From assembly GCA_963718915.1 (NCBI GenBank), contig CAVRAI010000004.1:360001-392000 (forward strand): 32,000 bases of DNA, read 5' to 3'. Every line of letters starts with the position of its first letter. Within the stretch, counting starts at the first letter, position 1. Below the pieces are notes generated by a model. The model saw only the letters and a program-made list of their open reading frames with translations, was not told the origin of the DNA and made no database searches. The position numbers were made by a program, and so were the translations under genes. Source of the DNA: an uncultured Chloroflexia bacterium. GTDB taxonomy: Bacteria > Chloroflexota > Ktedonobacteria > Ktedonobacterales > JADMIN01. This document shows, piece by piece, positions 10,896 through 31,920 of this stretch.

Positions 10896-11939
10896 CTAGA
10901 CGAGCGCGCGCCGCCGCGCCGGAGAGGGATGGCGCATCGTCACAATCGAGAGGAGCACGGCGCCCAGCCCCACACAACTCACCAGCACGCGAATGATCCC
11001 GCCGATCACTGGCGCGGTGCTGGCAATGGCGAGTATCGACACACCAAGAACGGTCGCCAGAATGAATGGCAGACGTCTATGGCTTGCCGCGCCCGGAACC
11101 AGCGCGCTCCCGATCCAGAGGCCGAGCGCCGACGTGCCAAAGATCGAGCCTCCCCAGAGTACCACACCAATCGCCAGCGCCAGTGGGATACCCAGGCAGC
11201 TCAGCACCAGCACCAGCGCGGCGACGACGCCGATCACGTATGCCAGCAGGCCGAGAAACAGGCTGCCAAGGGGCTGGTGGCGGGCGATGAGCCGCACGCG
11301 GGTCAGTTGCGATGGCATGAAGAGTGAGATGAAAAGCCCGGAGAATGCCCAGAAGATGACATCAGCCCAGTCGAGGCGGACGGGAATGATGCTGGTGACG
11401 TTCGGCAGCGCGAATTGATCGGTCGTCATGCCGCGATCGATCTGGCCATCCACCACGACGCCGGGCGAGCGGCTAATGGAGCCACCGAACGTCTGCACAT
11501 CGCCAGCGATATGCGCGCCTGGCAGGAGGGTTACATTGCCGCCAAGCGCCAGCACGCGGCCATCAACCTCGCCAGAGACGACAATACTCCCACCGACTGC
11601 CACAACATCGTTGCTCACACGGCCAAGCACGGTAATATTGCCGCCGTAGTCCATGAGGTGGCCGCAATACCACTGTTGTGTATCAACGACAACATCTTTG
11701 CCAAAGACATCGTGGTCCTCTGGAGCGCAACTCGCGAGTGGAGTGCGATTCCATGCGGGTGTGGTTCTGGCGAAGGATCCAGTCGAAAGCGCCAGTCGGT
11801 CAGGATATTCGCTCTGCGCGCCGCTAAACCAGGTGTGCCAGGGCAGCGCAAAAGCAGCGCCGAAGAGCGCGACGCCGCCGAGAACCGCTGCCAGGAGTAT
11901 CGCATAGCGTGCGTGCGAGGATGAGTGGGGGGCGCGCAT
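10896..11939 (-). CDS. Membrane protein with a bactofilin-like (polymer-forming cytoskeletal) beta-helix repeat region and a C-terminal multi-TM region
   Basis: An N-terminal TM helix. Repeats GGNITVLGRVSNDVVAVGGSIVVSGEVDGRVLALGGNVTLLPGAHIAGDVQTFGGSI. Four to five C-terminal hydrophobic helices. It starts 7 nt after the preceding gene, so it is probably in the same operon. Confidence 0.7.
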   Translation of the reverse strand: MRAPHSSSHARYAILLAAVLGGVALFGAAFALPWHTWFSGAQSEYPDRLALSTGSFARTTPAWNRTPLASCAPEDHDVFGKDVVVDTQQWYCGHLMDYGGNITVLGRVSNDVVAVGGSIVVSGEVDGRVLALGGNVTLLPGAHIAGDVQTFGGSISRSPGVVVDGQIDRGMTTDQFALPNVTSIIPVRLDWADVIFWAFSGLFISLFMPSQLTRVRLIARHQPLGSLFLGLLAYVIGVVAALVLVLSCLGIPLALAIGVVLWGGSIFGTSALGLWIGSALVPGAASHRRLPFILATVLGVSILAIASTAPVIGGIIRVLVSCVGLGAVLLSIVTMRHPSPARRRALV

Positions 11940-11946
11940 GGGAGCG

Positions 11947-12561
11947 TCAGGCTTCCTGTGGGTCGCGCCCGAACTGGCGAGTCAGTTGCACCCAGGACAG
12001 CAGTAGGCACCCCAGTAGGGCGCCCAATACGGCGGGAATCACCCAGGGCGTGGCGGTGGCGCGGCTGATCATCTGGCCGATCATTCGTCCGAAAGCCAGC
12101 AGGCCAATCGCCATCGAGATGAGCGCGTCGAGAATCGCGACCGCTAACGTGGGGTTAACCAGCGTGACGACAACTCCCGTACTCAGCATAAGGAGCAGCG
12201 CTACACTGAATATCACGCCGAGAATGCGCAGCGAACGCAGCCACGAGACTCGTGGGGGCAGACTCGCGACGAGTTGTTGTTGCGGTGCGGGTGCAGTCGC
12301 GATGCGCGTCAGCACCTTCGCGGTAAATTCATTGGGTGCGCTGGCCATCGTTACTGGCATGCGTAGCCGGATTTGGCGGTCGAGCGCATCATCGGCGGGT
12401 TCGACCGCAATATTGGCCTGCCGCGTGCCAGCGGGCAAAGCTGGCCGACGACGTAGCGCCATGCGCGCGAGGATGAAGGCGAATAGCGCGGAGAAGGCGG
12501 CGATACTAGTGCGCCGCCAGCCCGACGTCGCCTGCCGCGATCGATCCATGCTCTCGCTCAT
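11947..12561 (-). CDS. Putative membrane anti-sigma factor (assigned by position only)
   Basis: ATG at 12561 after GAGGAA. It has TM helices and sits directly downstream of the ECF sigma gene. No zf-HC2 motif is seen, so the function is inferred from gene order. Confidence 0.55.
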   Translation of the reverse strand: MSESMDRSRQATSGWRRTSIAAFSALFAFILARMALRRRPALPAGTRQANIAVEPADDALDRQIRLRMPVTMASAPNEFTAKVLTRIATAPAPQQQLVASLPPRVSWLRSLRILGVIFSVALLLMLSTGVVVTLVNPTLAVAILDALISMAIGLLAFGRMIGQMISRATATPWVIPAVLGALLGCLLLSWVQLTRQFGRDPQEA

Positions 12562-13246
12562 CTGTTTCCTCGCTGGCGAGGGTCATGTCCAGCCCCTGTG
12601 CCTTCATAGTTCGCGCGACAAGCTCGCGGGCGCGGTGGAGACGGGCCTTCACCAGAGCCGGAGTCAGGTCCAGGGTTTGGGCAATTTCCTCATAGGAGAA
12701 GTCATGCCAGTAGCGCAGAAGCAGAACCGCGCGATACTTGACCGGCAGCGTATCGAGGATGCGCTGCATGTCGTCAGCGGTCTCATGGCGCAGAGCGGAC
12801 TGCTCTGGCCCTGGGCCAACATCGGCGATCCATTCCAGGAAGGGCACGTTCTCCAGGGGCAATGCGAGAAAACGTCGACGACGAAGCTGGTCAATCGAAA
12901 GGTGCGACGCAATCGAGAGCAGCCAAGTGCTGAACCGATGCGTATCTTTATAGGTGTGCAACTGGGTGTAGGCGCGGACAAAAGCTTCCTGGGCGACGTC
13001 CTCCGCCTCGGTTGGGTTGCCGAGCATGCGGTAGGCGACATTGAACACAGGATCCTTGTACTTCTCAACGAGCGACGAGAATGCCTCCTGATCACCAGAA
13101 AGCGTTCTGCGCACGAGAGTGGTGTCCTCGATCATATCGGTCGTACGCGACGAAGAGATACCATTCGTGTTCTCGTCTTGCGAACGCCCAGACATCGCGC
13201 GACCCAGCGCTTTACCAGCAGCCAGGGCAGTACCTTGGATATCCAC
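12506..13246 (-). CDS. ECF-type RNA polymerase sigma factor (sigma-70 family, regions 2 and 4)
   Basis: GTG at 13246 is preceded by GAAGGAGG with a 6-nt spacer. Region 2 reads FSSLVEKYKDPVFNVAYRMLGNPTEAEDVAQEAFVRAY...FSTWLLSIASHLSIDQLRRR. Region 4 reads LPVKYRAVLLLRYWHDFSYEEIAQTLDLTPALVKARLHRAR. Confidence 0.85.
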   Translation of the reverse strand: MDIQGTALAAGKALGRAMSGRSQDENTNGISSSRTTDMIEDTTLVRRTLSGDQEAFSSLVEKYKDPVFNVAYRMLGNPTEAEDVAQEAFVRAYTQLHTYKDTHRFSTWLLSIASHLSIDQLRRRRFLALPLENVPFLEWIADVGPGPEQSALRHETADDMQRILDTLPVKYRAVLLLRYWHDFSYEEIAQTLDLTPALVKARLHRARELVARTMKAQGLDMTLASEETDEREHGSIAAGDVGLAAH

Positions 13247-13920
13247 CCCGGGCCTCCTTCGTTTGGCCGTGTGCCGTATCTATCTCGTTGGCGATGTATC
13301 CCGGCAATCCCGGAGATACCATTCGCCACATCGAGCTATCTCATTGCATCACGCCGACATGAACCTGGTTGACTATGCCTCTCTGAAGCTGAGCTTCCCG
13401 TTCTGTATACGCGGAAATCGCCTCAGGGTTGCAAACTTGCCATTCACGTCTGGCGTTGATAGTATTTTACCCCATAACCCTGGGCATCTGTAGTGTCCAA
13501 GGGTAGAAACCTGTCTAAGACTTAGGATGTACGATATCGTGCTTGTCTGCAATGACGTGCTCCACATCTTGCCGCGATTCCAGTGTTTATTGGTGTTCAT
13601 TGGAGGGCAATCTCCGAGCACAAGCACACTGAGAACCGCCAGATATCCGCAGGCAGTCACCGCAATCGTCCATCGTCAGACGTGAGGGGTGTGGCTGAGC
13701 CTCATAGAGTGGTCATACATTGTGGGAGCGCCCAACTCCAATCGCCCGCAGGATGACAAGCAGGATAAGAGCGCCAGCAAACGTGATGACCAGGGCGCCG
13801 ACGATGCCGACGATACCGTTCCGGCGCTACTTGTGTGGATGGTTTGCGCCTGCTACACTTGCGCAACGAGACTCGAGGCACATGCATTGCATAGATGGGC
13901 ATAGATGACGGAGGCCCACG

Positions 13921-19408: not shown

Positions 19409-20194
19409 CTATCCCGCACTCGGTGTTACCAGTTCGCTTGAAACGACGGTTATCACGGCGGGCAATGACCCAGACTTGAGATAGGCAGCCACCTGTCGCG
19501 CCGAGGCCTCGTCTCCACCCGTGATCTGGCCCGCGCCATCAATCTCGCTCTGGATGGTCGCCGATTCTACGACGATATCATCGACCGCAATAGTCAGATA
19601 TTGGCCGATGCGCGACGCGGTGTAAGAAGCGAATTGTTGCCTGGCTGATCCCGCGAACGCAAATTGCACAACCCACTGGCCGCTCTGGTTGTCTAGCTCT
19701 GCGGCTACCTGATTGCGATCAATCTGGTCCCCTGTGAATGCGATATGGTATTGCCCGGCCTCACAGGGGCCGACGCAAGTCTTGCCTGTTGTGCTTGCGC
19801 CGACTGGCAGGAAGTCTGATCCTGTGTCGAGAATTGCGACCGCGCCGCTGCTGGTCAGCAACGAGGTGATGTCGGCGATCTGCGGGCTGCCCGTGATACC
19901 TGGCAATTCGACGATGATTTGCGTTGAGCCGTCGGCACGTACAACGGGGTCGTGAACGTCAGATCTCCCCGCGAGTCGTCGGGTGAGCACGCCCATCGCC
20001 GCATCGCGCTCTTTCGCCAGAGTGCAGGCGGGCGCTTCCGGAAGACACGCCGTGCTCAAGGTAAGTCGGACGCCGCCATCTTGCCCAAGCGAGTGCTGAG
20101 GCGTGACAGACTGCCGCAGTCCAATAGGCGAACAGGCTGTGAGAAGCAGAGCGGCAACGAGTACAAAAGAGTGGCCAACCCAGTGCTTTGGCAT
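19409..20194 (-). CDS. Lipoprotein made of a SecD periplasmic (P1 head/base)-like domain without the SecD/F membrane domain
   Basis: ATG at 20194 (MPKHWVGHSFVLVAALLLTAC, lipobox L-T-A-C). AMGVLTRRLAG...STQIIVELPGITGSPQIADITSLLTSSGAVAIL and QYLTIAVDDIVVESATIQSEIDGAGQITGG...ASARQVAAYLKSGSLPAVITV follow the SecD P1 pattern. The ORF ends where the SecD TM helices would begin. Confidence 0.7.
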   Translation of the reverse strand: MPKHWVGHSFVLVAALLLTACSPIGLRQSVTPQHSLGQDGGVRLTLSTACLPEAPACTLAKERDAAMGVLTRRLAGRSDVHDPVVRADGSTQIIVELPGITGSPQIADITSLLTSSGAVAILDTGSDFLPVGASTTGKTCVGPCEAGQYHIAFTGDQIDRNQVAAELDNQSGQWVVQFAFAGSARQQFASYTASRIGQYLTIAVDDIVVESATIQSEIDGAGQITGGDEASARQVAAYLKSGSLPAVITVVSSELVTPSAG

Positions 20195-20374
20195 TGATGG
20201 AAACCTCTCAACCTCGAATATGAGCACTCTGGCGCTTTGCACCGACCCATCGATTGAGGGCAGGCCGTGGCGATTGGGAGTCTCCATAGCCTTTGGTACA
20301 TGTTGCGCGCAGCCGCACAGGGCAATCCCGGAACGGCTACGCACTCATGTGACCTCACATGCCCATCCCGGACA

Positions 20375-21625
20375 TTATGGCAGGCTCACAGGCATATTGC
20401 CTGGAGTAATTGCCGAAGAGCCGGTGGCGTGCGCGCCAGCGCCTAGCGGGAATTGCGCGATGATATCCGACGGGTCGATGTACTGAAGCGTACTGGCGTA
20501 GAAGGCCTGGCTGTCCGCGCGCCATGCCGGGCGGGAGAAGCCGTTCGGCGAGTCGTAGAAGCGCGTAGCGCCGCCAGTCATCGGGCCAGAGGCGACGTTG
20601 GGCGCTGGATCGGCGCTCGTGACAGCAACCTGCGAGCCATCGGGCGAAATCGCCAGATAGGCCGGATCGTTTGACGTGAGGGTCGGCAGGATACTCACCG
20701 CGCTACTGCCATCCGCGTTGGCGGAGTACCAGTGCGAGGACTGGGTCAGATCGCTGCCGCCACCAGTGACGGTTGATGCAAGCGATTGGTAGGCGATATG
20801 CGCGCCATCGGCTGAGACATCCCAGCCGCCATAGAAAATCTCGCCCTCGGCGCCTCCCCAGGTTCCCGCTGTCCCAATAGTGATGGGCGCGCCAATGGCG
20901 GCGTGCGAGGCCAGATCATAGCGGTGAATCAGCTCAGGAACGACTGGACTGGCAGGTACGCTGATGCCCGTGTAGGTCATGTAGAACAGTGTCGAACAAC
21001 GGACGACCCCTTCGATAGCGCCATCCGTGCCGGAAAGCGCGGTAAGGGTATTTGTCGTCAGGTCGTAGCTTTGCGCTGGAGAACTGGCCCCAGTAAAGAT
21101 AATCAGCGTGTGATCATCCGCCCAGGCAAAGAGGCGTTGCGGCTGATCTGACTGCGCATTCGTGATGGGATGCGCCAGCGGGACTTTCGTCACCGCGTGG
21201 GTGCTGGTATCGACGATATAGGGGTTGAATTCGACCGAAAAGGGAACGTACTGTGTGATTGCCACGGCGAGATGATGCGCGTCAGGGGCGGCAGCAATGA
21301 GGGTTGGCGTCGGAGCATTGCCAACCGCGTTCTCATCCTGGATTCCCAGCGGATAGACAAAGTTACTGAGCGTTGCCGTTGCGGCGCTGGCGGGAATGCG
21401 ACCGAGAACCTGTTTCGCCTGAACCCAGACCAGCGCGCTACCGGTCGCAGCGGTTGCGCAGGGGATAGGTGTCGCGGTTGGGACAGCGGCGCTACCAGGT
21501 GAAGTTGTCGAGCCGATACTGCACGCAAATAATGGGAGCGCACTACACCCTAACAGAATGACCAATCGGATGAGACCATGCCTGTGCCTTCTCAATACAT
21601 TCTCCTCTCGCCGCGGCCTGTGCAT
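20375..21625 (-). CDS. Lipoprotein with PD40/TolB-like beta-propeller repeats
   Basis: Signal peptide RRHRHGLIRLVILLGCSALPLFAC (lipobox L-F-A-C). Repeated xSxDG motifs (DVSADGAHIAY, ANADGSSAV, AISPDGSQVAV). Start candidates are ATG 21625, TTG 21595 (preceded by GAGGAG plus 6 nt) and GTG 21688. Confidence 0.7.
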   Translation of the reverse strand: MHRPRREENVLRRHRHGLIRLVILLGCSALPLFACSIGSTTSPGSAAVPTATPIPCATAATGSALVWVQAKQVLGRIPASAATATLSNFVYPLGIQDENAVGNAPTPTLIAAAPDAHHLAVAITQYVPFSVEFNPYIVDTSTHAVTKVPLAHPITNAQSDQPQRLFAWADDHTLIIFTGASSPAQSYDLTTNTLTALSGTDGAIEGVVRCSTLFYMTYTGISVPASPVVPELIHRYDLASHAAIGAPITIGTAGTWGGAEGEIFYGGWDVSADGAHIAYQSLASTVTGGGSDLTQSSHWYSANADGSSAVSILPTLTSNDPAYLAISPDGSQVAVTSADPAPNVASGPMTGGATRFYDSPNGFSRPAWRADSQAFYASTLQYIDPSDIIAQFPLGAGAHATGSSAITPGNMPVSLP

Positions 21626-22023
21626 CGCTAATCCAGACGGCAGGCCGGGCGCACTACTCTCATTCACGCGAAAACGACGATGGAACACAGATGCCGCCTG
21701 GTGGAAAGGATTCGCGAAGACCGAGAAGATGCCGACGAGGCTCTAAGCAAGCATGGCACTGTGACAGCGAGTATAGGGGTTCAGGCAAACGAAATCAAGT
21801 GGCCTCTGGCACAAAGTGATTGTTGCCACAATTGGTGGCGCATAGCTGGGAACACGACATGCCGAAATGATGTGAGGATGTCTGGAGGCGGATGAGAAGC
21901 GAAAGAGGAGCGCATTGCTGATGCGCCAGCCGTTCAGGGATGTGTGCGTGTAGTTGATCGCCGCCGGCACGTTGGGTCGAGCTTGAGGCGATTGCTCCGC
22001 CCAACAAAGCTGTCGTCATGGCA

Positions 22024-22993
22024 TCATGGCGAATTTCCGTCAGGAATGTCACGGGTGACTCTGCGCGGTGGGGCTTGTTGGCGTAGCGCCATTGGACGCA
22101 TTGGCAGCGCTGACGTCATCGCGTTAGCGTGCTGCGCGGTGTTTGTATGCTCGATGAACGGCCTGAGCAGGTTGGTAAACTCGGCAGGCACTACCAGCTT
22201 GGTGGATGGCGATGCGCCGAGCGCCTTGAGCGCATCCAGGTATTGCAGGCTCATCGTCTGATTGTCGAGGTGATCCGCGACCGAAGATATCTGCGCCAGC
22301 GCCTGTGAATATCCTTCGGCGCGCAGGATGGCTGCCTGGCGCGCGCCCTCGGCTTCGAGAATCGCGGCCTGCTTCTGGCCATCGGCGACTCGCACTGCGG
22401 CGTCACGCTTGCCATCGGCTTCGAGGATGATGGCGCGGCGGCTGCGCTCGGCGGACATCTGCCGGGTCATCGCTTCCTGAATCTCGTGCGGCGGGCTTAT
22501 CTCGCGGATCTCGACGGCCGTGACCTTGATGCCCCAACGTTCGGTAACTTCGTCGAGTTTGCCGCGCAGGGTGGAATTGATATCCTCACGGCGGGAAAGC
22601 ACCGAGTCGAGCAGCATATCGCCAACAACCGCGCGCAACGTGGTGATCGCGATGCCGCGCGATGCGTTTTCATACTGCTGAACGTTGATGACGCTCGACT
22701 GCGGGGTCGACGATCTTGGAGTAAATCAGAAAATCGATGGACAGCGAGGCGTTATCCTGGGTGATGCAGGCCTGCGGCGTGACGTCGAAGACTCGCTCGC
22801 GCAGATCGGTGCGAATGCCCTTGTCGACGACCGGAATGAGTAGAACCAGGCCCGGACCGCGCACACCCACCAGACGGCCAAGCCGCAGCACAACCAGACG
22901 CTGATACTCCGGCACGACGCGAATTGCCATCCCAACAAGAACGACACCTAGAAGAATGACGAGCACGGCGATCACAAAAGCTATTGGTGACAT
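22024..22993 (-). pseudogene. SPFH/Band-7 (stomatin/slipin-like) protein, split by one frame change
   Basis: 22670..22993 reads an N-terminal TM plus VVPEYQRLVVLRLGRLVGVRGPGLVLLIPVVD...SIDFLIYSKIVDPAVE. After a shift near 22690-22699 the next frame reads SVINVQQYENASRGIAITTLRAVVGDMLLDSVLSRREDIN...GIKVTAVEIREISPPHEIQEAMTRQMSAERSRRA. Confidence 0.8.
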
Positions 22994-23044
22994 GGTGGCG
23001 CCTCCTCCACGAAAACGATAGACTCACGAGCTATGATGTGACAC

Positions 23045-23724
23045 TCAGAGCAGTGATTCATCGGGCAGCCTCCATTCATATGGCCGGTGCACGAGGAGCG
23101 TTATCCCTTCCACTGCGAGCACCTCCACCGTCTCGCCTGCCTGAATCGGCCCGGCTTCCGCGACGGCGCTCCACTCCTCGCCGTTCACGCGGACGGTCCC
23201 ACGTAGCGCCAGGTCCGTGGTCGCCACACCTCCTTTCCGAGCAACGCCTCGCTCCCGCTCTTGCTCGGAAGATGACGGGTACGCAGGACGGCGCGCACGA
23301 CGACGAGGATGTAGCTACTGACCGCAAGCGTGCCAAGGCCAATGAGCCAGGGACTGATAGACCTGTCAGGCGTTTCGGGCGCTGGACCCACGAATGGTGT
23401 GAAGAGGAGCAGCGATCCCGCGACAAAGGCGATGACACCGCCCAGCGCGATCAGGCCAAACTGCGGCGAATGCGCCTCGGCGACGAAGAGTCCGGCGGCG
23501 AGGACAAGGAGCGCCACACCAAACCAGTTGACGCCCAGCATGCTGAATCCCAGTAGCGCCAGCGCCAGTGCGATCCCGCCGATAATGCCTGGGAAGAGGG
23601 TTCCTGGGTGATGGAACTCGCCGATAAGGCCAACGATCCCCAGGATGAAGAGGAGATATGCCACATTGGGATCCGCCAGCACCGAAAGAAACGGCCCTGG
23701 CATCGAGAGAAACGTCATCGGCAT
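23045..23724 (-). pseudogene. NfeD-family membrane protein (partner of SPFH), frame-shifted before its OB-fold domain and lacking an N-terminal protease domain
   Basis: 23185..23724 reads LADPNVAYLLFILGIVGLIGEFHHPGTLFPGIIGG... (the NfeD TM region) up to SEALLGKEV. A shift near 23224-23230 leads into VATTDLALRGTVRVNGEEWSAVAEAGPIQAGETVEVLAVEGITLLV (NfeD C-terminal OB fold, 23045..23227). Confidence 0.75.
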
Positions 23725-23790
23725 CGCTCGCCTCGCAATCCAGCGCTCACCGTCGCGTGGCTGGTCTGTTCGTCAACTAGTGAGGCGTCT

Positions 23791-23937
23791 ATGAGCCAAC
23801 GAGCAACAACCAGCGTCCTGCATGAATTTCATCTGCCGGAGCGAATACCATCTGATGGAACGGTCTATGAAACGTCCTACCAATACGTAGTATACGTCTG
23901 TTCAAAGACTTCAAGGCACACTCGGATCGCACGATGA
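23791..23937 (+). CDS. Candidate small protein (48 aa), unknown function
   Basis: GTGAGG lies 5-6 nt upstream of the ATG at 23791. It reads MSQRATTSVLHEFHLPERIPSDGTVYETSYQYVVYVCSKTSRHTRIAR*. A 7-bp hairpin plus T-run starts 11 nt after the stop. No family was recognised and it could be fortuitous. Confidence 0.25.
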   Translation: MSQRATTSVLHEFHLPERIPSDGTVYETSYQYVVYVCSKTSRHTRIAR

Positions 23938-23947
23938 AGATGAAAGG

Positions 23948-23966
23948 AGGAGAGGCAGACTCTCCT
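23948..23966. terminator. Short GC hairpin AGGAGAG-gcaga-CTCTCCT followed by TTTAT on the plus strand
   Basis: A perfect 7-bp stem read from the sequence. On the plus strand it follows the small ORF. On the minus strand it lies about 140 nt downstream of the GS-like gene end. Confidence 0.4.
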
Positions 23967-24103
23967 TTATGTAAATACGAAGCCCTGTAACAGTACGTTG
24001 CAAGGGCAGCGCTGGCGTTGTCGAAAGCCCCAGGTGAAAGGGCGCTGCGGCGTCTGCAACCGACTCATAAAATAACTGGGCGTCGGGGCCACTTCACCGC
24101 TGC

Positions 24104-25467
24104 TTAATACTTGTAGAAATGCTGGCGCGCCTCCTCCTCTGGCGGCATGTCGGCGAAGTGCTGGCATTCCAGTCGCTTGACCGCGAGGTAGGCTGTCATC
24201 TCAATGGGCCGAGGGCATCGGCCAGCACGGTATCTTGCTCCAGCGCATCCAGCGCCTCGTCGAGCGTGGCTGGCAGTCGGCTGATGTGGCGTTGCTGGCG
24301 TTCTTCGTCGCTCAGATTGGCTGGGTCAACATCGACTGGCGCCTGGATGCAGCTGGCGGCGGATGCCATCCAGCCCAGCCGCGATCAGCCCGCCAAGCGC
24401 CAGATACGGATTGCCGCTATGGTCGGCTGGTTTTAGCTCCAGGTTGGTCGATTCGGCCTCGCGCCCCCAGAATGGCGAGGGGATGCGAATCGCGCCCTCC
24501 CGGTTGTCGAAGCCATAGGCGGTATAGGCGGAACTCCAGAAGTGCGGCAGCAGCCGACGATACGAGTTGGGGCTGGCGCAGGTGAGCGCCAGCAGCGCTG
24601 GCAGATGGGCCAGCACACCGCCGATAAAGTGGTAGCCCAGCTGGCTGATTCCGCCCCGCCCCTGAGGATCATACAGCAGGTTGTGCCCCGCGTTGGCGGC
24701 GCCTGGAGTCCCCACAGACTGAAATGGATATGCGCGCCGCTGCCGGCCTGGTCGAGAAATGGCTTCGCGGCGAACGAGGCGAGCACGCCATGCTGCCGGG
24801 CGACGCCGCGCACGGTCTCACGCACCAGCAGCACATTATCCGCGGCGCGCAGCGCATCGGCGTGGATGGATCGAGAGCTCCTGCTGGCCGGGGCCAAGTT
24901 CCGGCATAAACTGCTCGACCTGAATGCCTTCCTGTTCCAGCGCCGCCAGGATGTCGTCGATGATCTGCGCCGACGAGTCGAAGCCAATGCTGCTGTAGCA
25001 GAGGCTTCGGTCATAGGGTGCGTAGCCGCCGTCGGCGTTTCACGCGCCAGATAAAACTCATGCTCCACGCTTGCCTGTACGGCAATGCCCATCTGCGCCG
25101 CCGCCGCCATCATGCGCTTGAGGAAGGTGCGCGGGCAGGCGCTCCAGGGCTGGCGGTCCTGCTGCGAATAGAGGTCGCAGAGCATCATGCCCGTGTTGGG
25201 CGCGTAGGGCAGCACGACGAAGGTATCTGGGTCGGGCACCAGGCGAAACTCGCCAACTGGCCCCATGCCGTCAACCGCCGCCAGCGCATCGACACCCGCA
25301 AATGCCTGCATGGCGAGCGACTGCCCGATTCCCTCAGCCATGCGGCTTTTCAGGCCATTGATATGGGTCGCTTTGCCGCGAATGATGCCGCCATTATCGC
25401 AGTACATGAAGCGCACCAGCCGCAGGTGCGCCTCTTCCGCGCGTTGGAGAACGGTCTCGCGGTCCAT
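24104..25467 (-). pseudogene. Glutamine synthetase-family (GlnA/PuuA-like) gene with about 5 frame changes
   Basis: The N-terminus is LRLVRFMYCDNGGIIRGK... The catalytic-domain pieces lie in different frames: VEHEFYLARETP | DGGYAPYDRSLCYSSIGFDSSAQIIDDILAALEQEGIQVEQFMPELGPGQQELSIH | ADALRAADNVLLVRETVRGVARQHGVLASFAAKPFLDQAGSGAHIHFSLWG | TPGAANAGHNLLYDP...SPNSYRRLLPHFWSSAYTAYGFDNREGAIRIP...[17 protein letters not shown] | [36 protein letters not shown] | [15 protein letters not shown]...YKY*. The shifts are near 25031-25038, 24862-24871, 24710-24716, 24331-24343 and 24197-24206. Confidence 0.85.
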
Positions 25468-25645
25468 GGCTTTCCTCCGGGCTATGACGCTGCACGCGAG
25501 GCTACTGCCCGCTGGCGTATCATACCTGATGACGACGGGAAGAAATGGCGCGAACGGGTAATGTACAGCGTATGACGTACGATAGGCAACGGCGAAATGG
25601 CTGTCAAGGCCACAGGCGCGGCGCTATGCGACTGGCGCGAGAAGG

Positions 25646-26925
25646 ATGGCGACGATGGAAGCGCTGGATCTGACTGATATTCCGGTCATAGACGAACACT
25701 GCCATGGATTCTACCTGCGCAGACAGCCGACTGATGTCATGGCATGGCGCCGCCATTTCACGGAGTCCGCGGACGAAAGCATTTGGCAGGAACATGTTCC
25801 TTCCACGCTCTTCTATCAGCGGCTGATGCGTGAGCTGGCGACGTTCTTTGGCTGCGAAGCCACGGAGTCGGCGGTGCTTGAGGCGCGAGTCGCTACCAAT
25901 CCGACGACCTGATCCGTGCATTTCTCCAGGCGGGCAACATCGAGACGTTGCTGATCGACCAAGGATATCCGGCGGCTGAACTGCTCATGCCAGATGCGGA
26001 TGTCGCGGCGCTCGCGGGCTGCCGGGTGGGTGCGTTCCTGCGGCTGGAAAACCTGATGCAGGAGTTGATCGCGGAGCACGATACGCTGGATGCCGTCACC
26101 GAGGCGCTGCGCGCGGCGCTCGCTGATGTGCGCGCGCAAGGATATGTTGGCCTCAAGAGTATCGTCGCCTATCGCACCGGGCTGGATATCCGCTGGTGGG
26201 AGAGGTCCGAGGCGGTGGACGTCATTTCACGCAGGCGCGCCAGGAGGCGGTCGAACAGGGACATCTACGCTTGCAGCACAAACCATTGCTCGATACCCTG
26301 CTGCATGTGGCATTCACCGAAGCGGCGCGGCAAGAGCTTCCGGTCCAGTTCCACACGGGCTATGGCGATACCGATGCTGATATGCTGCTGGCGAATCCGT
26401 TGCATCTGCGCGCCGTGCTGGAGCACCGGCCCTATCGCGGTATGCGCGTGGTGCTGCTGCACGAATGCTACCCATACACGCGCCAGGGCGGCTATCTCGC
26501 GGCGGTCTACGAGCAGGTGTATCTGGACCTTTCCTATGGCATCCCATTTCTCAGTTATGGCGAGATGGTCGCGTTTACCCGTGCGGCGCTAGGCGTCGCG
26601 CCCAACCTCGAAGCTGCTCTATAGCTCAGATGCCGTTGGGATTCCCGAACTCCACTGGATCAGCGCGCGCGACGGTCGCCGCATTCTTGGCCAGGCGCTG
26701 GGCGAATCGGTGGCGTATGGCGAATTGACCCTCTCGGAGGCCGAGACAGCCGCCATGGCAGTGCTCCATGATAATGCGGTGCGCCTCTATCGGCTCGGCG
26801 ATCGAGCCTCAGAAGTCATGATTTGCAACGTGAGTAGATTATGTAAAGGTTGGGTACGAGAGACCGAACAGAGCCAACTACTGGCGGATTGCTGTCTGTT
26901 CGTATATACTAAATTCGAGAAATGA
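25646..26925 (+). pseudogene. Amidohydrolase_2-like metal-dependent hydrolase with about 3 frame changes; final frame runs on to 26925
   Basis: ATG at 25646 after GAGAAGG. It begins PVIDEHCHGF (HxH metal motif). The pieces are ...ARVATNP | DDLIRAFLQAGNIETLLIDQGYP...YVGLKSIVAYRTGLDI...SEAVDV | FTQARQEAVEQGHLRLQHKPLLDTLL...PVQFHTGYGDTD...VVLLHECYPY... | SKLLYSSDAVGIPELHW...AVLHDNAVRLYRLG. The shifts are near 25899-25905, 26225-26232 (T-run) and 26600-26606. It is divergent from the GS-like gene. Confidence 0.75.
26869..26906 (+). terminator. Hairpin CGAACAGA-(22 nt)-TCTGTTCG followed by an AT-rich tract
   Basis: A perfect 8-bp inverted repeat read from the sequence, followed by TATATACTAAATT. 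It lies just after the conserved end of the amidohydrolase (..RLYRLG at about 26810). Confidence 0.35.
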
Positions 26926-27117
26926 AGATTTGGTGCCGCCGCTGTTTGTCGCTATTACGTAGATATGCGTTCGTGTAGGGCTTTTCCATTGCTGCCAGGC
27001 ATAATGAGTCAAGAGCACCTTGTTATTCATAGAGATGCTTGCACTTGTGCTTCTGTGGTAATCTGAATCGCGGCCCAGATTTAGATTCGTCTGACTTGCA
27101 CTGTTTGGAGTTTTTAA

Positions 27118-29648
27118 ACGGTCGCCAAAAGTGATGACCTTGACGTTACAATAGCTAAAGATCTACTTCGGGTAATCCGAGAAATTTCTGATGAAAGGTA
27201 TCAATATGACATATTCAGAGCGATATTCAACTCGGCCTCAGATATATCGCATGAATATTGTATAGAAGCAGCCCGCGAATTACATCCAAGTATATTTGGC
27301 GTTGCTGCCTTGACCGAGATAGCTGCAAACAGCGAAACAGAGCAGCAACGTCGGCTGATTAATGAGGTATTGGAACAGATCGCAAGATTATCCGAGCTTC
27401 GTGGATTTGCCCTTCTTTATCTACTCTTGCCTGCCATGAATAGGGTGCCTGTAAATGAATTTGCTCACGAATGATAGAAATTGCGTATGGGATTGAGAAC
27501 CGCGAGGAGCGTTTGGCATCACTTGCAGGTCTCCTTACTTTTACGTCGGTGAACTTGCTAGAGACTACGAAGAACACGTTAACAGAGTACCTGCCCCAGA
27601 GTTTTGACCCAGCTTTGCGCACTTTTATCATAGAACGTATGGCCTCGCAGTTAACGTCAGACATGGTATCGCATTCCCTCATGGCAGGCACAAGTAATTG
27701 GTTTGAAAGATTGGTTCATGATCGTGGGCTGCAACTTCTGATCTATGCGTGGGCATACCTCTGGCGAGATTTAGATCCCAAGGCGCAGCAAGAGTCACTA
27801 CTTCTTGCTCTTCGAGTTCCAGATATGCAAGCACGAGCACAAGCGGTAAGGCACCTCGCCAAATACCTGCCACATAATCTCATTGAGGCGGCATTGCACA
27901 GATCCACAAACTGAGAGATCAAGCCGATCTCGCCCAAATCCTTTCAGCGATTGCGCCTGATGTGCCTGTCGACCTGATGGATGACTTCTTAACCGCAATG
28001 CAGAGACTGAATGGTGGCTATACCACCGATGATATCCTTGAAGCTATTGCACCACGGCTGTCGCTTCAGCAGTGTGAGTTTGTCCTTGATCTCATTGATG
28101 GACTCGACAGATCGTACGACTCATGGGCGAAAGAACGCAATTTAAAAGCACTGGCGGTGTACCTTCCCGACACGCTAGTCGGACGAGCAGTCGAAATCGC
28201 CAATTCGATTCCAGAGCCATCGTTACGGGTAAATGTTCTACTGGCATTGGGTCACCTTCTTACGGCATCGCAATATGGCGAATTGCTAGACACTATCTCA
28301 GCAGCGGTAGGCGAGATCTACATGCCTGATGTCCTGAAACGCGTTGCGTCACATTTGCCGGAAGACTTTTTCCGCGATTCGTCAGTATATGCGAATCGGT
28401 AGATGAGTCCGAGGCGGTGGCAGATGCGCTCGCAGCACTTGCACCTCGCCTGACATCGACGGTCGGATGCAGCTCATTACTTTAGCCCGTAAACTTGTCC
28501 CAATACGAGCGCGCGTAAGGGCTTTGACACTGTTGTCGCCATACTCGACGGATGACCTGATGCTTGAGGCACTCACAATTGCCCGCACATCCGACAAACT
28601 AGACGACACGATTTATGCGTTGCAAATATTGGTGCCGCATGGTGGTGTTCAATGGGAGACAGAATGGCTAGGTTTGGTCATTGACTCTGCGCGTAAGGTG
28701 GGCCAGATTGATGACGGAGAATATGTTGACGAGTATGGGCGAGAACCTAGCCTCAGGCATTATGCTCCTGATCAGATACTCATGCAATTTCTGTTTGCCG
28801 TCGACCCCCGATTTCAGGGCGAATTGCTAACAGAATTGCTTCGTCAACTCCGATTGAGTGCTGATCAAACGCACTCGGCCGATGTCCTTATGCAACTTCT
28901 TGATTATTTGCCTGATGAGTTAATTAAGTCGAATCGTGCGGTATTCATCGAGATGACAAAGCACATCGCTGAGGATAGTTGGATTCAAACGTTGGAAAAA
29001 TATCAAGAGATATTGCCGGTTTCCGTCCTGAAGTGCGGTCTTGGCGCGACCTTGCGTCAAGGCGCTGGCAATAGGTTCTTCGGCGTCCAAGACGTACTTG
29101 ACCTTGCATTATCGGGGACTCCGATTTATCTATTGGGATCCTACGGTAAGAATAACGATCCGGTCGCAGGGGGGCCTGGAGATGTGCTTGCGTTGCTATA
29201 CAATTTCAACTTACTGCGGCCTCGTCGGCAACGCCGTCAAGTCACTGTGATGGTACCGCGTCTAGTTGCTGCAGGCCAGACGAGCCGCGTTCAGTTGAAC
29301 ATCGGACTAGCTGAGGGACAAAGCCGCATACAGCTGGTTCCCACGCGAACCATCCAATTAGTCGTCGAGATGCAATCTGGAGATTCTGCAATCCGTGTTG
29401 AAAATGGAAGAGTGCGATTGGTTGAAGTTGCCTGGGACAAGGACGTTTCGCCGCTATCGTTTGAGGTTTATGTGTCTCAGCTGGGCAGACACTCCCTGCA
29501 CATCAAGATCTCAAGTGGGCATGCTGAATTAGTCGTTCAGAAGGCAGACATTGAAGTTGTCCTCGACGCAGTAGAAGGCGCTTCGTCGGACGAATTCATA
29601 CTCACCCAGTCAGAGTTCAAAGTTGAACCTAAAGATGCTACTCGTTGA
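27118..29648 (+). pseudogene. Large alpha-helical-repeat (HEAT/ARM-like) protein with a beta-rich C-terminal domain, fragmented into at least 5 frame pieces; N-terminal part apparently missing
   Basis: The pieces are 27118-27474 (VAKSDDLDVTIAKDLLRVIREISDERYQYDIFRAIFNS...LLYLLLPAMNRVPVNEF), 27471-27914, about 27900-28402, about 28365-28455 (FVSICESVDESEAVADALAALAPRLT) and 28467-29648 (393 aa, the longest intact ORF). All share a recurring pattern of about 35-45 aa: L-x-A-L-A-P-x-L-P-x-x-L-x(6-10)-I-x-D-x(3)-R. The last roughly 130 aa (VTVMVPRLVAAGQTSRVQLNIGL...SLHIKISSGHAELVVQKADIEVV) alternate like a beta-sandwich. Confidence 0.55.
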
Positions 29649-29661
29649 TTTTCTCCATATA

Positions 29662-30300
29662 TTACTTGCCTTCAGGCTTAGACGCCAAAACGAAAGCAAT
29701 ACCATTAATGAGTGTGCTGAAAGCAATAAGTATGATATAAGCCGTGCTTAACCATGTCCAACCGAACGATCGTATCAGATATTGAGCAACTGAGAATTGC
29801 GCCACTGCCGGAAAAAGCAGCAAGGTGATTATTAGAATTGGCACGTTTGCAAGCCCCGTGAGGATCCGTACGAATCTCCCTTCCAGCCCTTCACCAATAT
29901 CCGTAATGACTGAGCTTATGTCAGGGTATTCCAATGGATGGGCTATCGCTTTATTGGAATATGGGTTTGGGTATCCAATGTCGAAATACAACTTAACAAT
30001 GATCCGGCGGAGCCGACGAAGGTGATTGGAGAGACCAACCAAATAGCTGAACAAAGCTGCGACAATGACAGAAAAGCCCAAAACTATCATCCACACAGGA
30101 ACATGAATTTCAAGTCCAGCAAGAGATAGCTGATTATCTGACTTTGCAATGCCAAACGACAGGAGGATTGTGATAGCGCTACAAACACACTGTAATAGAT
30201 AGGCTCTATTAATGCTTGTTCCGGTGGCTAGCATTGTTTCGTGGATGCGCTCGATGTAATGCAGGGTTAACTCACGCTCCTGAATTGGATATGAATTCAT
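29662..30300 (-). CDS. Orphan 4-TM membrane protein (212 aa), unknown function
   Basis: ATG at 30300 with AAGGTGA about 10 nt upstream. It has a soluble N-terminal helix of about 30 aa and four hydrophobic helices (AYLLQCVCSAITILLSFGI, VPVWMIVLGFSVIVAALFSYLVGL, ILTGLANVPILIITLLLFPAV, WLSTAYIILIAFSTLINGIAFVLA). It is convergent with the repeat gene, with a 13-nt gap. No family was recognised. Confidence 0.6.
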   Translation of the reverse strand: MNSYPIQERELTLHYIERIHETMLATGTSINRAYLLQCVCSAITILLSFGIAKSDNQLSLAGLEIHVPVWMIVLGFSVIVAALFSYLVGLSNHLRRLRRIIVKLYFDIGYPNPYSNKAIAHPLEYPDISSVITDIGEGLEGRFVRILTGLANVPILIITLLLFPAVAQFSVAQYLIRSFGWTWLSTAYIILIAFSTLINGIAFVLASKPEGK

Positions 30301-30447
30301 CCCGACCGCTCACCTTCATGAGTAGTTTCAGCCATATCTCAACTCCATTAGAATATGCGCGAGTGGACGCTACGCTATACAAGCTTAGCGTGTTATATCA
30401 TATTTATGCCTCAGGGAAACACGGAATCATGGTAGCTGACTATTCGC

Positions 30448-31920
30448 TTACAGCTTCGGGATGAGGGGACCGAACTGGTCCGCGGTGGGTTCCGCTCAGC
30501 AGAACCATGGCTCGCTTAGGTGGGGGACAGGTCGCCGTGCTCGCCGGAGCGTGCCGGTGGTGTCAGACATGCCTGCGCCCACCAGCGCCGGTTCACGCAC
30601 ACCCAGCCGCTCTGCTGCCAGGCGACGGATGGCGGCGAACGTCACCGCGATTGGCTCGCGCTGGCTGGCGGCGTGCTCGACCAGCGCCTGGACCTCGCGC
30701 TGCAACGCATCCATGCGCGGGTCGGGATGCTGCCAGGTGTAGCTGAGCGCCTCCTCATCCAACGGGCCGAGCCACCCTCGCCCAGCAGGGTCGTCCAGCA
30801 AGGCAGAGCTGGGCGGCACGAGCAGACGGATGGCGTACTGGATCGGGTCAACATGCTCCACCAGCCCATGTTCGGCGATGAAGTCCAGCACGTCAAGGTA
30901 GTCGCTGGCGGTGGTCCATGGCGTGAAGGCGACGAAGGTTGGGCGCATCGGGATGCCCGCGTCGTCCAGGATATCCAGCGCTTCGGCAACATCGGCGCGG
31001 CTATGGCCCTTCTTCAGATGGCGCAATACCCCCTCGCTCAGCGATTCGACTGCGGAGACGACGAAGGCGCAGCCGAGCGAGGCAAGCTCCGGGAAGATCT
31101 CGCGCCGTTCGAGAATGTGCTCGATCTTGATCGTCGCGTCGAAGGTCAGGTGTGGAAATTCGGCGTGCATCGCGCGGACAATCTCCAGTGAGTGGCGCGG
31201 ACCGTTGAGGAAGTCTGGGTCGCCGAAGGTGATATGCCCGACGCCAGCATGCGCCTGGGCGCGGATATCTTCGAGCACAAGCGGGCGCGGAATCGCGAAG
31301 AAGCGTCCGCCGTAGACGGGCGTGATCGGGCAATGGGCGCAGGTGTGCAGGCAGCCGCGCGTCGCTTCAACATAGCCCGCCGGAACGACCTCGTCGCCAC
31401 GTACCAGATAGGCGTAGGACTGCGGCGCGGGCAGCGTCTCGCGTTCGGGCGCGGCATACTCCAGCCGCCGCAGCACAGGCAGCGCATGATGGTCGCGCGT
31501 GCGCACGCCGGGTATCGTTTCGGGCGCGCTGCCCTGGTGCGATGATTCGAGCGAGTCGGCCAGCGCCAGCAGCGCCTCCTCATACTCGCCGCCGATGATC
31601 GAGTCGGCAACGGTGCGCAGCAGATAGTCGGCGTTGAGGGTGGCATAGAGGCCGTAGAAACAGATATGCGCGCTGGGATTGAGCGTTCGGACGCGCGCGG
31701 CGACATGCGCTCCCAGGCGCAGCGCGGTATGCATCGGCGCGGAGATGGCAACCAGTTTCGCCTGTGTGATAGCGTCATCGGATAGCTCGGAGACAGAGGT
31801 ATCGACCGCGACCGGCGAGAATCCGGCGCGGCGCAGAACCGCCAGAGGCGAGGCAAGACTGAGCGGCTGGTGACCCAGTTCGTAGCATGCTACCAGCAGG
31901 ATTGCGCCCGCTGCTCTCAT
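30448..31920 (-). CDS. B12-binding-like/radical SAM protein with a C-terminal C-U-A-E-P tail: CUAEP/CCAEP-tail radical SAM selenoprotein (TGA at 30496-30498 read as Sec)
   Basis: ATG at 31920. There is an N-terminal Rossmann-like B12-binding-type domain and a CxxxCxxC motif (ATRGCLHTCAHCP). The track ORF ends at TGA, but the minus strand reads TGC TGA GCG GAA CCC, which is C-U-A-E-P. It stays open to TAA at 30448-30450, giving ...SEPWFCUAEPTADQFGPLIPKL*, 490 codons. Confidence 0.8.
30467..30481 (-). promoter_or_regulatory. Candidate bacterial SECIS hairpin downstream of the in-frame UGA
   Basis: The RNA reads UGA GCGGAACCCACCGC-GGACC-AGUUC-GGUCC-CC. This is a 5-bp stem with a 5-nt loop containing GU, starting 14 nt after the UGA. 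A possible extra G-C pair lies beyond a C/C mismatch. Confidence 0.45.

Follow-up and report, generated by a model that had tools for sequence, protein, structure and literature searches.

Hotspots with a fixed position between conserved core genes, cargo that varies from strain to strain and deviant base composition have been mapped in Escherichia coli, where defence systems are reported to cluster at such sites (PMC10121019) and where recognisable mobile elements, among them prophages, integrative and conjugative elements (ICEs) and transposons, make up the overwhelming majority of the occupants. A comparable site is described here in a stretch of 32,000 nucleotides (the window) of contig CAVRAI010000004.1 (assembly GCA_963718915.1, positions 360,001 to 392,000) from an uncultured Chloroflexia bacterium, which a scan of species representatives with the intact radical-SAM protein of the window placed in the Ktedonobacterales (Chloroflexota). 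Between two convergent core genes, encoding an amidohydrolase and a B12-binding radical-SAM protein, lies a low-GC segment, referred to below as the islet, which carries a gene for a helical-repeat protein and, tail to tail with it, a gene for a protein with four transmembrane (TM) segments. The islet shares with the E. coli hotspots the position between conserved core genes, the strain-varying cargo, the deviant composition and the strain-level presence and absence; it differs from them in having no integrase, transposase, tRNA or attachment repeat and a cargo that is no recognised defence system, and its left junction falls exactly at a stop codon, flank-anchored homologous recombination being the probable route. 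The reading favoured here, at a probability of about 0.75, is that of a horizontally acquired accessory islet without mobility genes, located in a variable hotspot between convergent core genes, whose cargo is functional and whose apparent gene breaks are artefactual.

The islet (3,640 bp; coordinates of all features in Table 1) has a GC content of 47.7%, against 60.9 +/- 1.1% (minimum 58.3%) in all other 3.64-kb intervals of the window. At finer resolution the 500-bp intervals across 27001-30500 range from 42 to 53% GC, and the remaining 56 background intervals have a mean of 61.2% (sd 3.6, minimum 53.4). The tetranucleotide L1 distance between the islet and the rest of the 32-kb sequence is 0.484, compared with 0.139 +/- 0.011 for other intervals, and GC at third codon positions (GC3) is 0.46-0.50 in the islet genes versus 0.66-0.78 in seven host open reading frames (ORFs). 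The composition of the islet is unameliorated, and its DNA is foreign and accessory. Its limits were set by comparison with L003 and L002, the two loci with the closest radical-SAM proteins: DNA homology to both ends at ~26795-26803, at the amidohydrolase stop codon, and is found again from ~30444 on, a point lying 52 bp downstream of the stop codon of the radical-SAM gene.

The radical-SAM protein is conserved at 85-92% amino acid (aa) identity in metagenome-assembled genomes of Ktedonobacterales, the best loci being L003 (92%), L002 (91%), L004 (89%), L006 (87%) and L005 (85%). In L002 and L003 the amidohydrolase and radical-SAM genes are convergent neighbours, as in the window, the amidohydrolase is intact (395 aa, ending ...RLYQLTY*) and the islet is absent. 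The two genes are separated in L003 by 631 bp of unrelated DNA with two small overlapping ORFs, and in L002 by 2.1 kb of unrelated DNA comprising the same two ORFs and a PQQ beta-propeller lipoprotein gene (12120-13283); L006, which also lacks the islet, has one of these small ORFs. The more distant L008 (71% aa identity) has, immediately downstream of its radical-SAM orthologue, a segment of 48-55% GC (11581-13633) with genes for an N6/N4 DNA methylase (PF01555, 4e-43) and an endonuclease of the NotI family (PF12183, 6.9e-7), which form a type II restriction-modification (R-M) pair at the same hotspot. Since different cargo occurs between the same genes in L002/L003, L006 and L008, the site qualifies as a variable hotspot, of which the islet is one accessory occupant.

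Two further features of the site deserve mention. The small-ORF cassette (~74-76 aa and 97 aa) lies at 11572-12076 in L002, ~11575-12084 in L003 and 11815-11949 in L006. By its layout alone the ORF pair of L002 and L003 resembles a toxin-antitoxin (TA) system; it has no Pfam, NCBIfam or PHROG match and matches no toxin or antitoxin family, and for this reason the identification was dropped and only the description as TA-like in layout was kept. The contigs of L004 (at its end) and of L082, a relative that carries the islet (at its position 1), break no more than ~30 bp from the right edge of the islet or the 3' end of the radical-SAM gene, which is consistent with strain heterogeneity splitting assemblies at the hotspot.

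Classical integrase-mediated genomic islands also combine compositional deviation with presence/absence polymorphism at a conserved site, but the islet has no integrase, recombinase, transposase, tRNA/tmRNA neighbour or flanking direct repeats. The whole window contains no tRNA or tmRNA and no match to an Rfam family, no convincing pair of terminal direct or inverted repeats spans both junctions, and a target-site duplication was also not found. None of the islet ORFs has an integrase, recombinase or transposase domain of Pfam or NCBIfam, and there is no further ORF of useful size. The islet differs from fragments derived from prophages or plasmids as well, having no similarity to phage or plasmid genes: its ORFs have no match in PHROGs, tblastn of the islet genes gave 0 matches in 50,697 phage and 72,556 plasmid records, and scans of IMG/VR returned no relative of them. 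A promoter and terminator scan of the islet was uninformative. Because of the absence of mobility genes, the junctions at a stop codon and at the trailer of the radical-SAM gene, and the contig breaks in L004 and L082, the most economical route would be recombination anchored in the conserved flanks, and not an integrase of its own, both for the entry of the islet and for its later movement between related strains. The trailer, which is host DNA outside the islet, is likely the right recombination anchor of the variable site, and its hairpin likely a terminator. By parsimony, the islet would have displaced the small two-ORF cassette of the nearest relatives.

Much of this agrees with the original prediction, made from the sequence of the window, which had described an AT-rich island wedged between two high-GC genes, had reported no integrase, transposase, tRNA or terminal repeats, and had proposed an acquired, accessory segment. 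The computed GC profile bears out the deviation, the limits proposed then nearly match the present ones (~130 bp apart on the left, 4 bp on the right), the mobility signatures are indeed missing, and the synteny comparison finds the amidohydrolase and radical-SAM genes adjacent elsewhere with other DNA, or, downstream of the latter in L008, with an R-M pair. The same account took the segment to be old and partly eroded, an interpretation that did not survive comparison with other assemblies.

As written in the window, the helical-repeat gene does fall into five frame segments (27118-27471, 27459-27911, 27887-28399, 28330-28482 and 28407-29645). Searches for the exact TM protein and for its homologues yielded two independent contigs bearing the islet: L082 (ENA ERZ25039457, contig_22392, 12.3 kb), which is colinear with window positions 19704-30449 and ends there, and L001 (Logan assembly ERR11563127), from a third sample, which covers 28338-30478. 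Relative to L082, all four breaks of the repeat gene are 1-bp deletions in the window, at ~27465, 27897, 28364 and 28461. L001 is 99.86% identical to the window; apart from a single substitution, it has one extra base at each of two places, ~28364 and 28461, so that three of the frame segments become joined; the frameshifts are missing from L082 in all four cases and from L001 in both of those that it covers. In turn, L082 has private indels at 29251, 29494, 29597, 29605 and 29811 that occur neither in the window nor in L001. The private indels of the window and those of L082 form disjoint sets, and any indel for which three sequences are available is therefore a singleton. Short homopolymers or dinucleotides form the context of the indels, and across the two islet genes ~9 indel events stand against 17 substitutions between the window and L082, a ratio typical of consensus error and not of evolution. 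Insertion of the four bases yields a single uninterrupted ORF of 844 codons with no in-frame stops; L082, reciprocally corrected, gives an 844-aa ORF starting with ATG, whose product differs from the window protein at 9 residues.

The flanking core genes show the same kind of lesion. Eleven private, frame-breaking indels of 1-2 bp lie at window positions 22699-26601, and at these L002, L003 and L082 agree with each other against the window. They fall in a glutamine-synthetase-like gene, the amidohydrolase gene and neighbouring genes. When corrected, the amidohydrolase is 88% identical to the 395-aa protein of L002 without internal stops, and the codon changes between the two (101 synonymous, 47 non-synonymous) are those expected of purifying selection. 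No nonsense substitution occurs among the lesions of the window, each of which is a private indel of 1-2 bp. At the amidohydrolase terminus the window reads GAT CGA at 26798-26805 where L082 has TAT TGA (the ...GY* end of the protein), and the loss of this stop (CGA at 26803-26805) extends the window ORF to 26925; the repeat gene, which opens with ATG in L082, has ACG at the corresponding window positions 27118-27120. In the non-coding leader upstream of that start the window carries seven 1-bp deletions relative to L082, whose version of the leader has no ORF in any frame.

A gene in five segments without a canonical start, an amidohydrolase without its stop codon, and frame-breaking indels concentrated in 22.7-28.5 kb would all fit an old acquisition now decaying, in which the repeat gene, and perhaps the glutamine-synthetase-like and amidohydrolase genes, were true pseudogenes. 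This is improbable, given that the lesions are confined to the assembly of the window, that L082 carries its own, different set, that four independent frameshifts would be required at ~0.5% substitutions from L082, that the corrected amidohydrolase is conserved in the manner described, and that the composition is unameliorated. In a decaying pseudogene, moreover, lesions would be reproduced in independent sequence and selection relaxed, neither of which is seen for the repeat gene. The closer likeness is to the indel-induced pseudo-pseudogenes of error-prone (probably long-read) metagenome assemblies, in which isolated private indels of 1-2 bp break conserved ORFs and contigs of another sample lack the same indels; the window differs from these in that its errors are locally clustered and not uniform, since none occur in the radical-SAM gene or in the interval 10.9-18 kb. 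From these comparisons, the breaks in the repeat gene, the glutamine-synthetase-like gene and the amidohydrolase gene appear to be assembly indel errors, with no gene decay. The helical-repeat gene is thus fragmented as written, in keeping with the earlier description, but its fragmentation is not biological; nor can the erosion be upheld for a segment whose body is ~99.5% identical to L082 and whose corrected repeat ORF is complete.

How recently the islet has moved can be judged from the substitution divergence between the window and L082, which falls from 14% over 19.7-22.6 kb and 7.1% over 22.6-26.8 kb to 5% in the left 314 bp of non-coding islet DNA; the repeat gene differs by 0.59%, the TM gene by 0.31% and the last 143 bp of the islet not at all (islet body versus flank, Fisher p = 3e-56). 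Near-identity amid diverged flanks suggests that recombination or transfer took place recently. A patch of 97-99% identity to L082, in the region of an NfeD-like gene (23204-23953), occurs within DNA that is 7-10% diverged, and near-identical patches of this type outside the islet (23.2-23.95 kb) imply that mosaic recombination is common in these populations. The succession of events would be that the window and L082 split later than the separation from the L002 and L003 lineages (flanks 12-15% diverged), that the islet was already present before this split, and that its body was homogenised much later, by recombination or transfer between strains.

Of the relatives compared, the closest one available, L082 (~93% flank identity), carries an effectively intact copy of the islet at the same position, and the original prediction had named such relatives as evidence of an ancestral segment. 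This is also what would be seen if the segment were ancestral to the clade, had been deleted or replaced in L002, L003 and L006, and owed its low GC to the constraints of its own genes. In its left 320 bp the islet is ~5% diverged from L082, about as much as the flanks, so that it should predate the split of the two, and the diverged gene pairs found in two other contigs (L083 and L085, discussed below) have a similarly low GC. Nevertheless, simple ancestry is highly improbable: the divergence pattern and the absence from L002, L003 and L006 speak against it, protein constraints do not account for GC3 values of 0.46-0.50 when the genome stands at ~0.72, the different small ORF common to L002, L003 and L006 makes that cassette the more parsimonious ancestral state, and the islet genes occur in none of the 80 radical-SAM loci compared, from Ktedonobacterales and beyond.

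Table 1. Features of the islet and of the adjoining host DNA, in window coordinates
Feature	Position	Strand	Remarks
Low-GC islet	26804..30443	.	Between the amidohydrolase stop codon and the conserved radical-SAM 3' trailer; defined by composition, L002/L003 breakpoints and its identical location in L082
Non-coding leader of the islet	26804..27117	+	Ends in GGAG (27107-27110) and a 7-nt spacer, followed by start position 27118
Helical-repeat protein gene, 844 aa (corrected)	27118..29648	+	About the first 600 aa repeats, last ~220 aa a domain of its own
4-TM protein gene, 212 aa, intact	29662..30300	-	Tail-to-tail with the repeat gene, 13 bp between stop codons
AT-rich region upstream of the 4-TM gene, right end of the islet	30301..30443	-	Identical in L082
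Host amidohydrolase gene (Amidohydro_2), left flank	25646..26803	+	Private 1-bp indels at 25888, 26220, 26224 and 26601
3' trailer of the radical-SAM gene, host DNA	30444..30495	-	GGACC-N5-GGTCC hairpin; conserved in L002 and L003; fold z -1.95
Host B12-binding radical-SAM gene, right flank	30496..31920	-	Intact, convergent with the amidohydrolase gene; Pfam PF04055 and PF02310

The cargo would be a functional tail-to-tail pair consisting of an alpha-solenoid and a four-TM protein. Detectable relatives of the repeat protein (E 1e-29 to 1e-4, 22-32% identity) are confined to proteins of 950-1,460 aa that contain an NTPase module (NB-ARC, AAA_16 or a related one), and the match falls in their C-terminal arrays of ~31-38-residue repeats ('LAPxLP' type). 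In the STAND NTPases among them (NB-ARC PF00931 or AAA_16 PF13191; P0001-P0014), which contain homologues of the islet repeats at E 1e-29 to 1e-7, the repeat is the same (..R..AL..LAP.LP..LL..AL..A..I.D..), and a hidden Markov model built from the repeats of P0001 matches the islet protein (E 2.9e-8) in six weak copies. The islet protein differs from the STAND NTPases in that it starts directly in the repeats, without NTPase module or N-terminal effector, in that its repeats are far more degenerate, at the low identities given above, and in that it lacks their '...DVGRWWP' C-terminal end, in place of which it has a domain of ~220 aa. Compared with Avs-type STAND/NLR-like defence proteins, the repeat sensor array is present (homology to P0001-P0016) and both the NTPase module and the N-terminal effector are absent. 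Searches of Pfam, NCBIfam, PADLOC and PHROGs with all islet ORFs and with the corrected 844-aa protein gave only sub-threshold noise, with no NB-ARC, NACHT, AAA_16 or effector domain, PDB sequence and profile searches with the repeat protein and its C-terminal domain gave nothing meaningful, and no TM segment is predicted. The repeat protein is accordingly best described, as a prediction, as a soluble, cytoplasmic alpha-solenoid with degenerate STAND-type repeats.

The homologues suggested that the gene might be the 3' remnant of a STAND gene for 1,200-1,450 aa, a candidate ruled out by the start context and the non-coding DNA upstream. The opening of the window ORF, immediately behind a stop, coincides exactly with the sequence GGAG-N7-ATG in L082, and the only islet DNA upstream of the repeat gene, 314 bp, is non-coding in the window and in L082; the repeat protein should therefore stand alone. 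Its C-terminal ~220 aa are conserved in L083 and L085 and were seen only there: Pfam and PDB hold no relative, and a word search in an index of 5.8 billion proteins returned only the source protein. The sequence suggests that this domain may be beta-rich, possibly a beta-sandwich, and it appears to be novel.

The TM protein is intact, as had been predicted, with four hydrophobic segments in its 212 aa. It belongs to an unnamed family of ~200-aa proteins (153 clusters at E<=1e-3) that is characterised by an N-terminal LHYIDKxH..ETG..INR motif and by HPLEYPN in its central loop, and has no relative in Pfam, NCBIfam, PADLOC, PHROG or PDB; the sole, weak PDB match of the family, to the transmembrane helices of ABCB6, was judged to be due to chance. 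Two or three members of the family carry an N-terminal helix-turn-helix (HTH) or sigma-70 region 4 domain, and distant members lie beside PDZ-containing peptidases in L087 (1003-2883) and L090 (588-1787), of the M61 and S41/Tricorn_C1 types. The peptidase neighbours and the HTH and sigma-70 domains are possible clues to the role of the family.

The association of the two genes extends beyond the islet. The same tail-to-tail pair occurs in L083 (SRR23961915), with identities of 70% for the TM protein and 56% over 506 aa for its partner, and in L085 (SRR31557530), with 34% for the TM protein and 26% for the C-terminus of the partner (E 1e-11 to 1e-13), both on contigs of ~48-49% GC. Both islet genes are under purifying selection: relative to L083, the ratio of non-synonymous to synonymous substitution rates (dN/dS) amounts to 0.22 in the repeat gene and, with dS saturated, to 0.04 in the TM gene. 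The repeat and TM genes constitute a conserved module within a subclade, and the likeliest model of their action, although a tentative one, would be a soluble repeat scaffold or sensor that acts together with the membrane protein.

From this pairing a role in conflict can be envisaged, in which the islet would be a novel two-gene anti-phage or conflict module formed by a STAND/NLR-related repeat sensor and a membrane-disrupting 4-TM effector in a defence hotspot. The same site is occupied by the methylase/NotI-like pair in L008 and by the TA-like small ORFs in L002 and L003, the repeats have detectable homologues only in STAND NTPases of the NB-ARC/AAA_16 type, in the C-terminal arrays of these proteins, the pairing of the genes persists at identities of 34-70%, the islet shows strain-level presence/absence and recent exchange, and the clustering of defence systems at core-gene hotspots is known (PMC10121019). 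On balance, however, such a module is unlikely. In PADLOC-DB 2.0 neither the TM protein nor any piece of the islet ORFs matches a family at E<=0.1, neither protein contains an NTPase, a nuclease, a TIR or any other effector domain, the genes are convergent and form no operon, the distant TM homologues occur in unrelated, housekeeping-like contexts (PDZ-peptidases, an NmrA-like gene), the small ORFs of L002 and L003 match no toxin or antitoxin family, and there is no phage or plasmid copy. Of the defence-type cargo that the original prediction held to be typical of such islands, PADLOC, Pfam, NCBIfam and PHROGs revealed nothing, and what is left of the suggestion is the hint given by the hotspot context and the repeat type. 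A more specific version, equally doubtful, is an undescribed two-component module in which the NTPase-less repeat protein would sense an invader protein and gate or activate the HPLEYPN four-TM protein, and which would spread via the recombination hotspot without mobile-element machinery.

Several observations weigh against the interpretation of the islet as a recently exchanged accessory segment with an intact, functional gene pair. The sharp drop in divergence from L082 does not coincide with the islet edge but occurs at ~27150, some 350 bp within the islet, and L082 ends at 30449, the right edge of the islet; the near-identity may consequently mark a longer tract of homologous recombination that merely includes the islet. 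Scans of IMG/VR, phage, plasmid and metagenome records did not identify a donor lineage, and a metagenome scan with a narrower TM alignment gave one 1.4-kb contig of no use for context. The clustering of errors in 22.7-28.5 kb, with the rest of the window spared, is a further difficulty, polishing against mixed strains around the shared islet being a guess at its cause. For the lesions at 27465 and 27897, as for the ACG start and the loss of the amidohydrolase stop, the comparison is with L082 only, which is itself error-prone. The more distant members of the TM family have other neighbours, so that the pairing holds only in a subclade and the repeat protein is ruled out as a universal partner of the family. 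Finally, the AlphaFold2 models were too poor to use, with pLDDT of 41 for the 393-aa C-terminal ORF (single sequence) and 51.5 for the TM protein (3-sequence alignment).

All told, this is an ordinary small genomic islet whose cargo is a conserved, uncharacterised pair of genes. It provides a cautionary case, in which an apparent eroding acquisition was shown to be intact and recently exchanged by cross-checking with two independent contigs, and it documents a variable hotspot downstream of the B12-radical-SAM gene in Ktedonobacterales whose occupants include a restriction-modification pair. It also defines an uncharacterised conserved pair, made up of an NTPase-less STAND-type repeat protein and a member of a 4-TM family of ~150 clusters, which is a reasonable low-priority candidate for functional testing.

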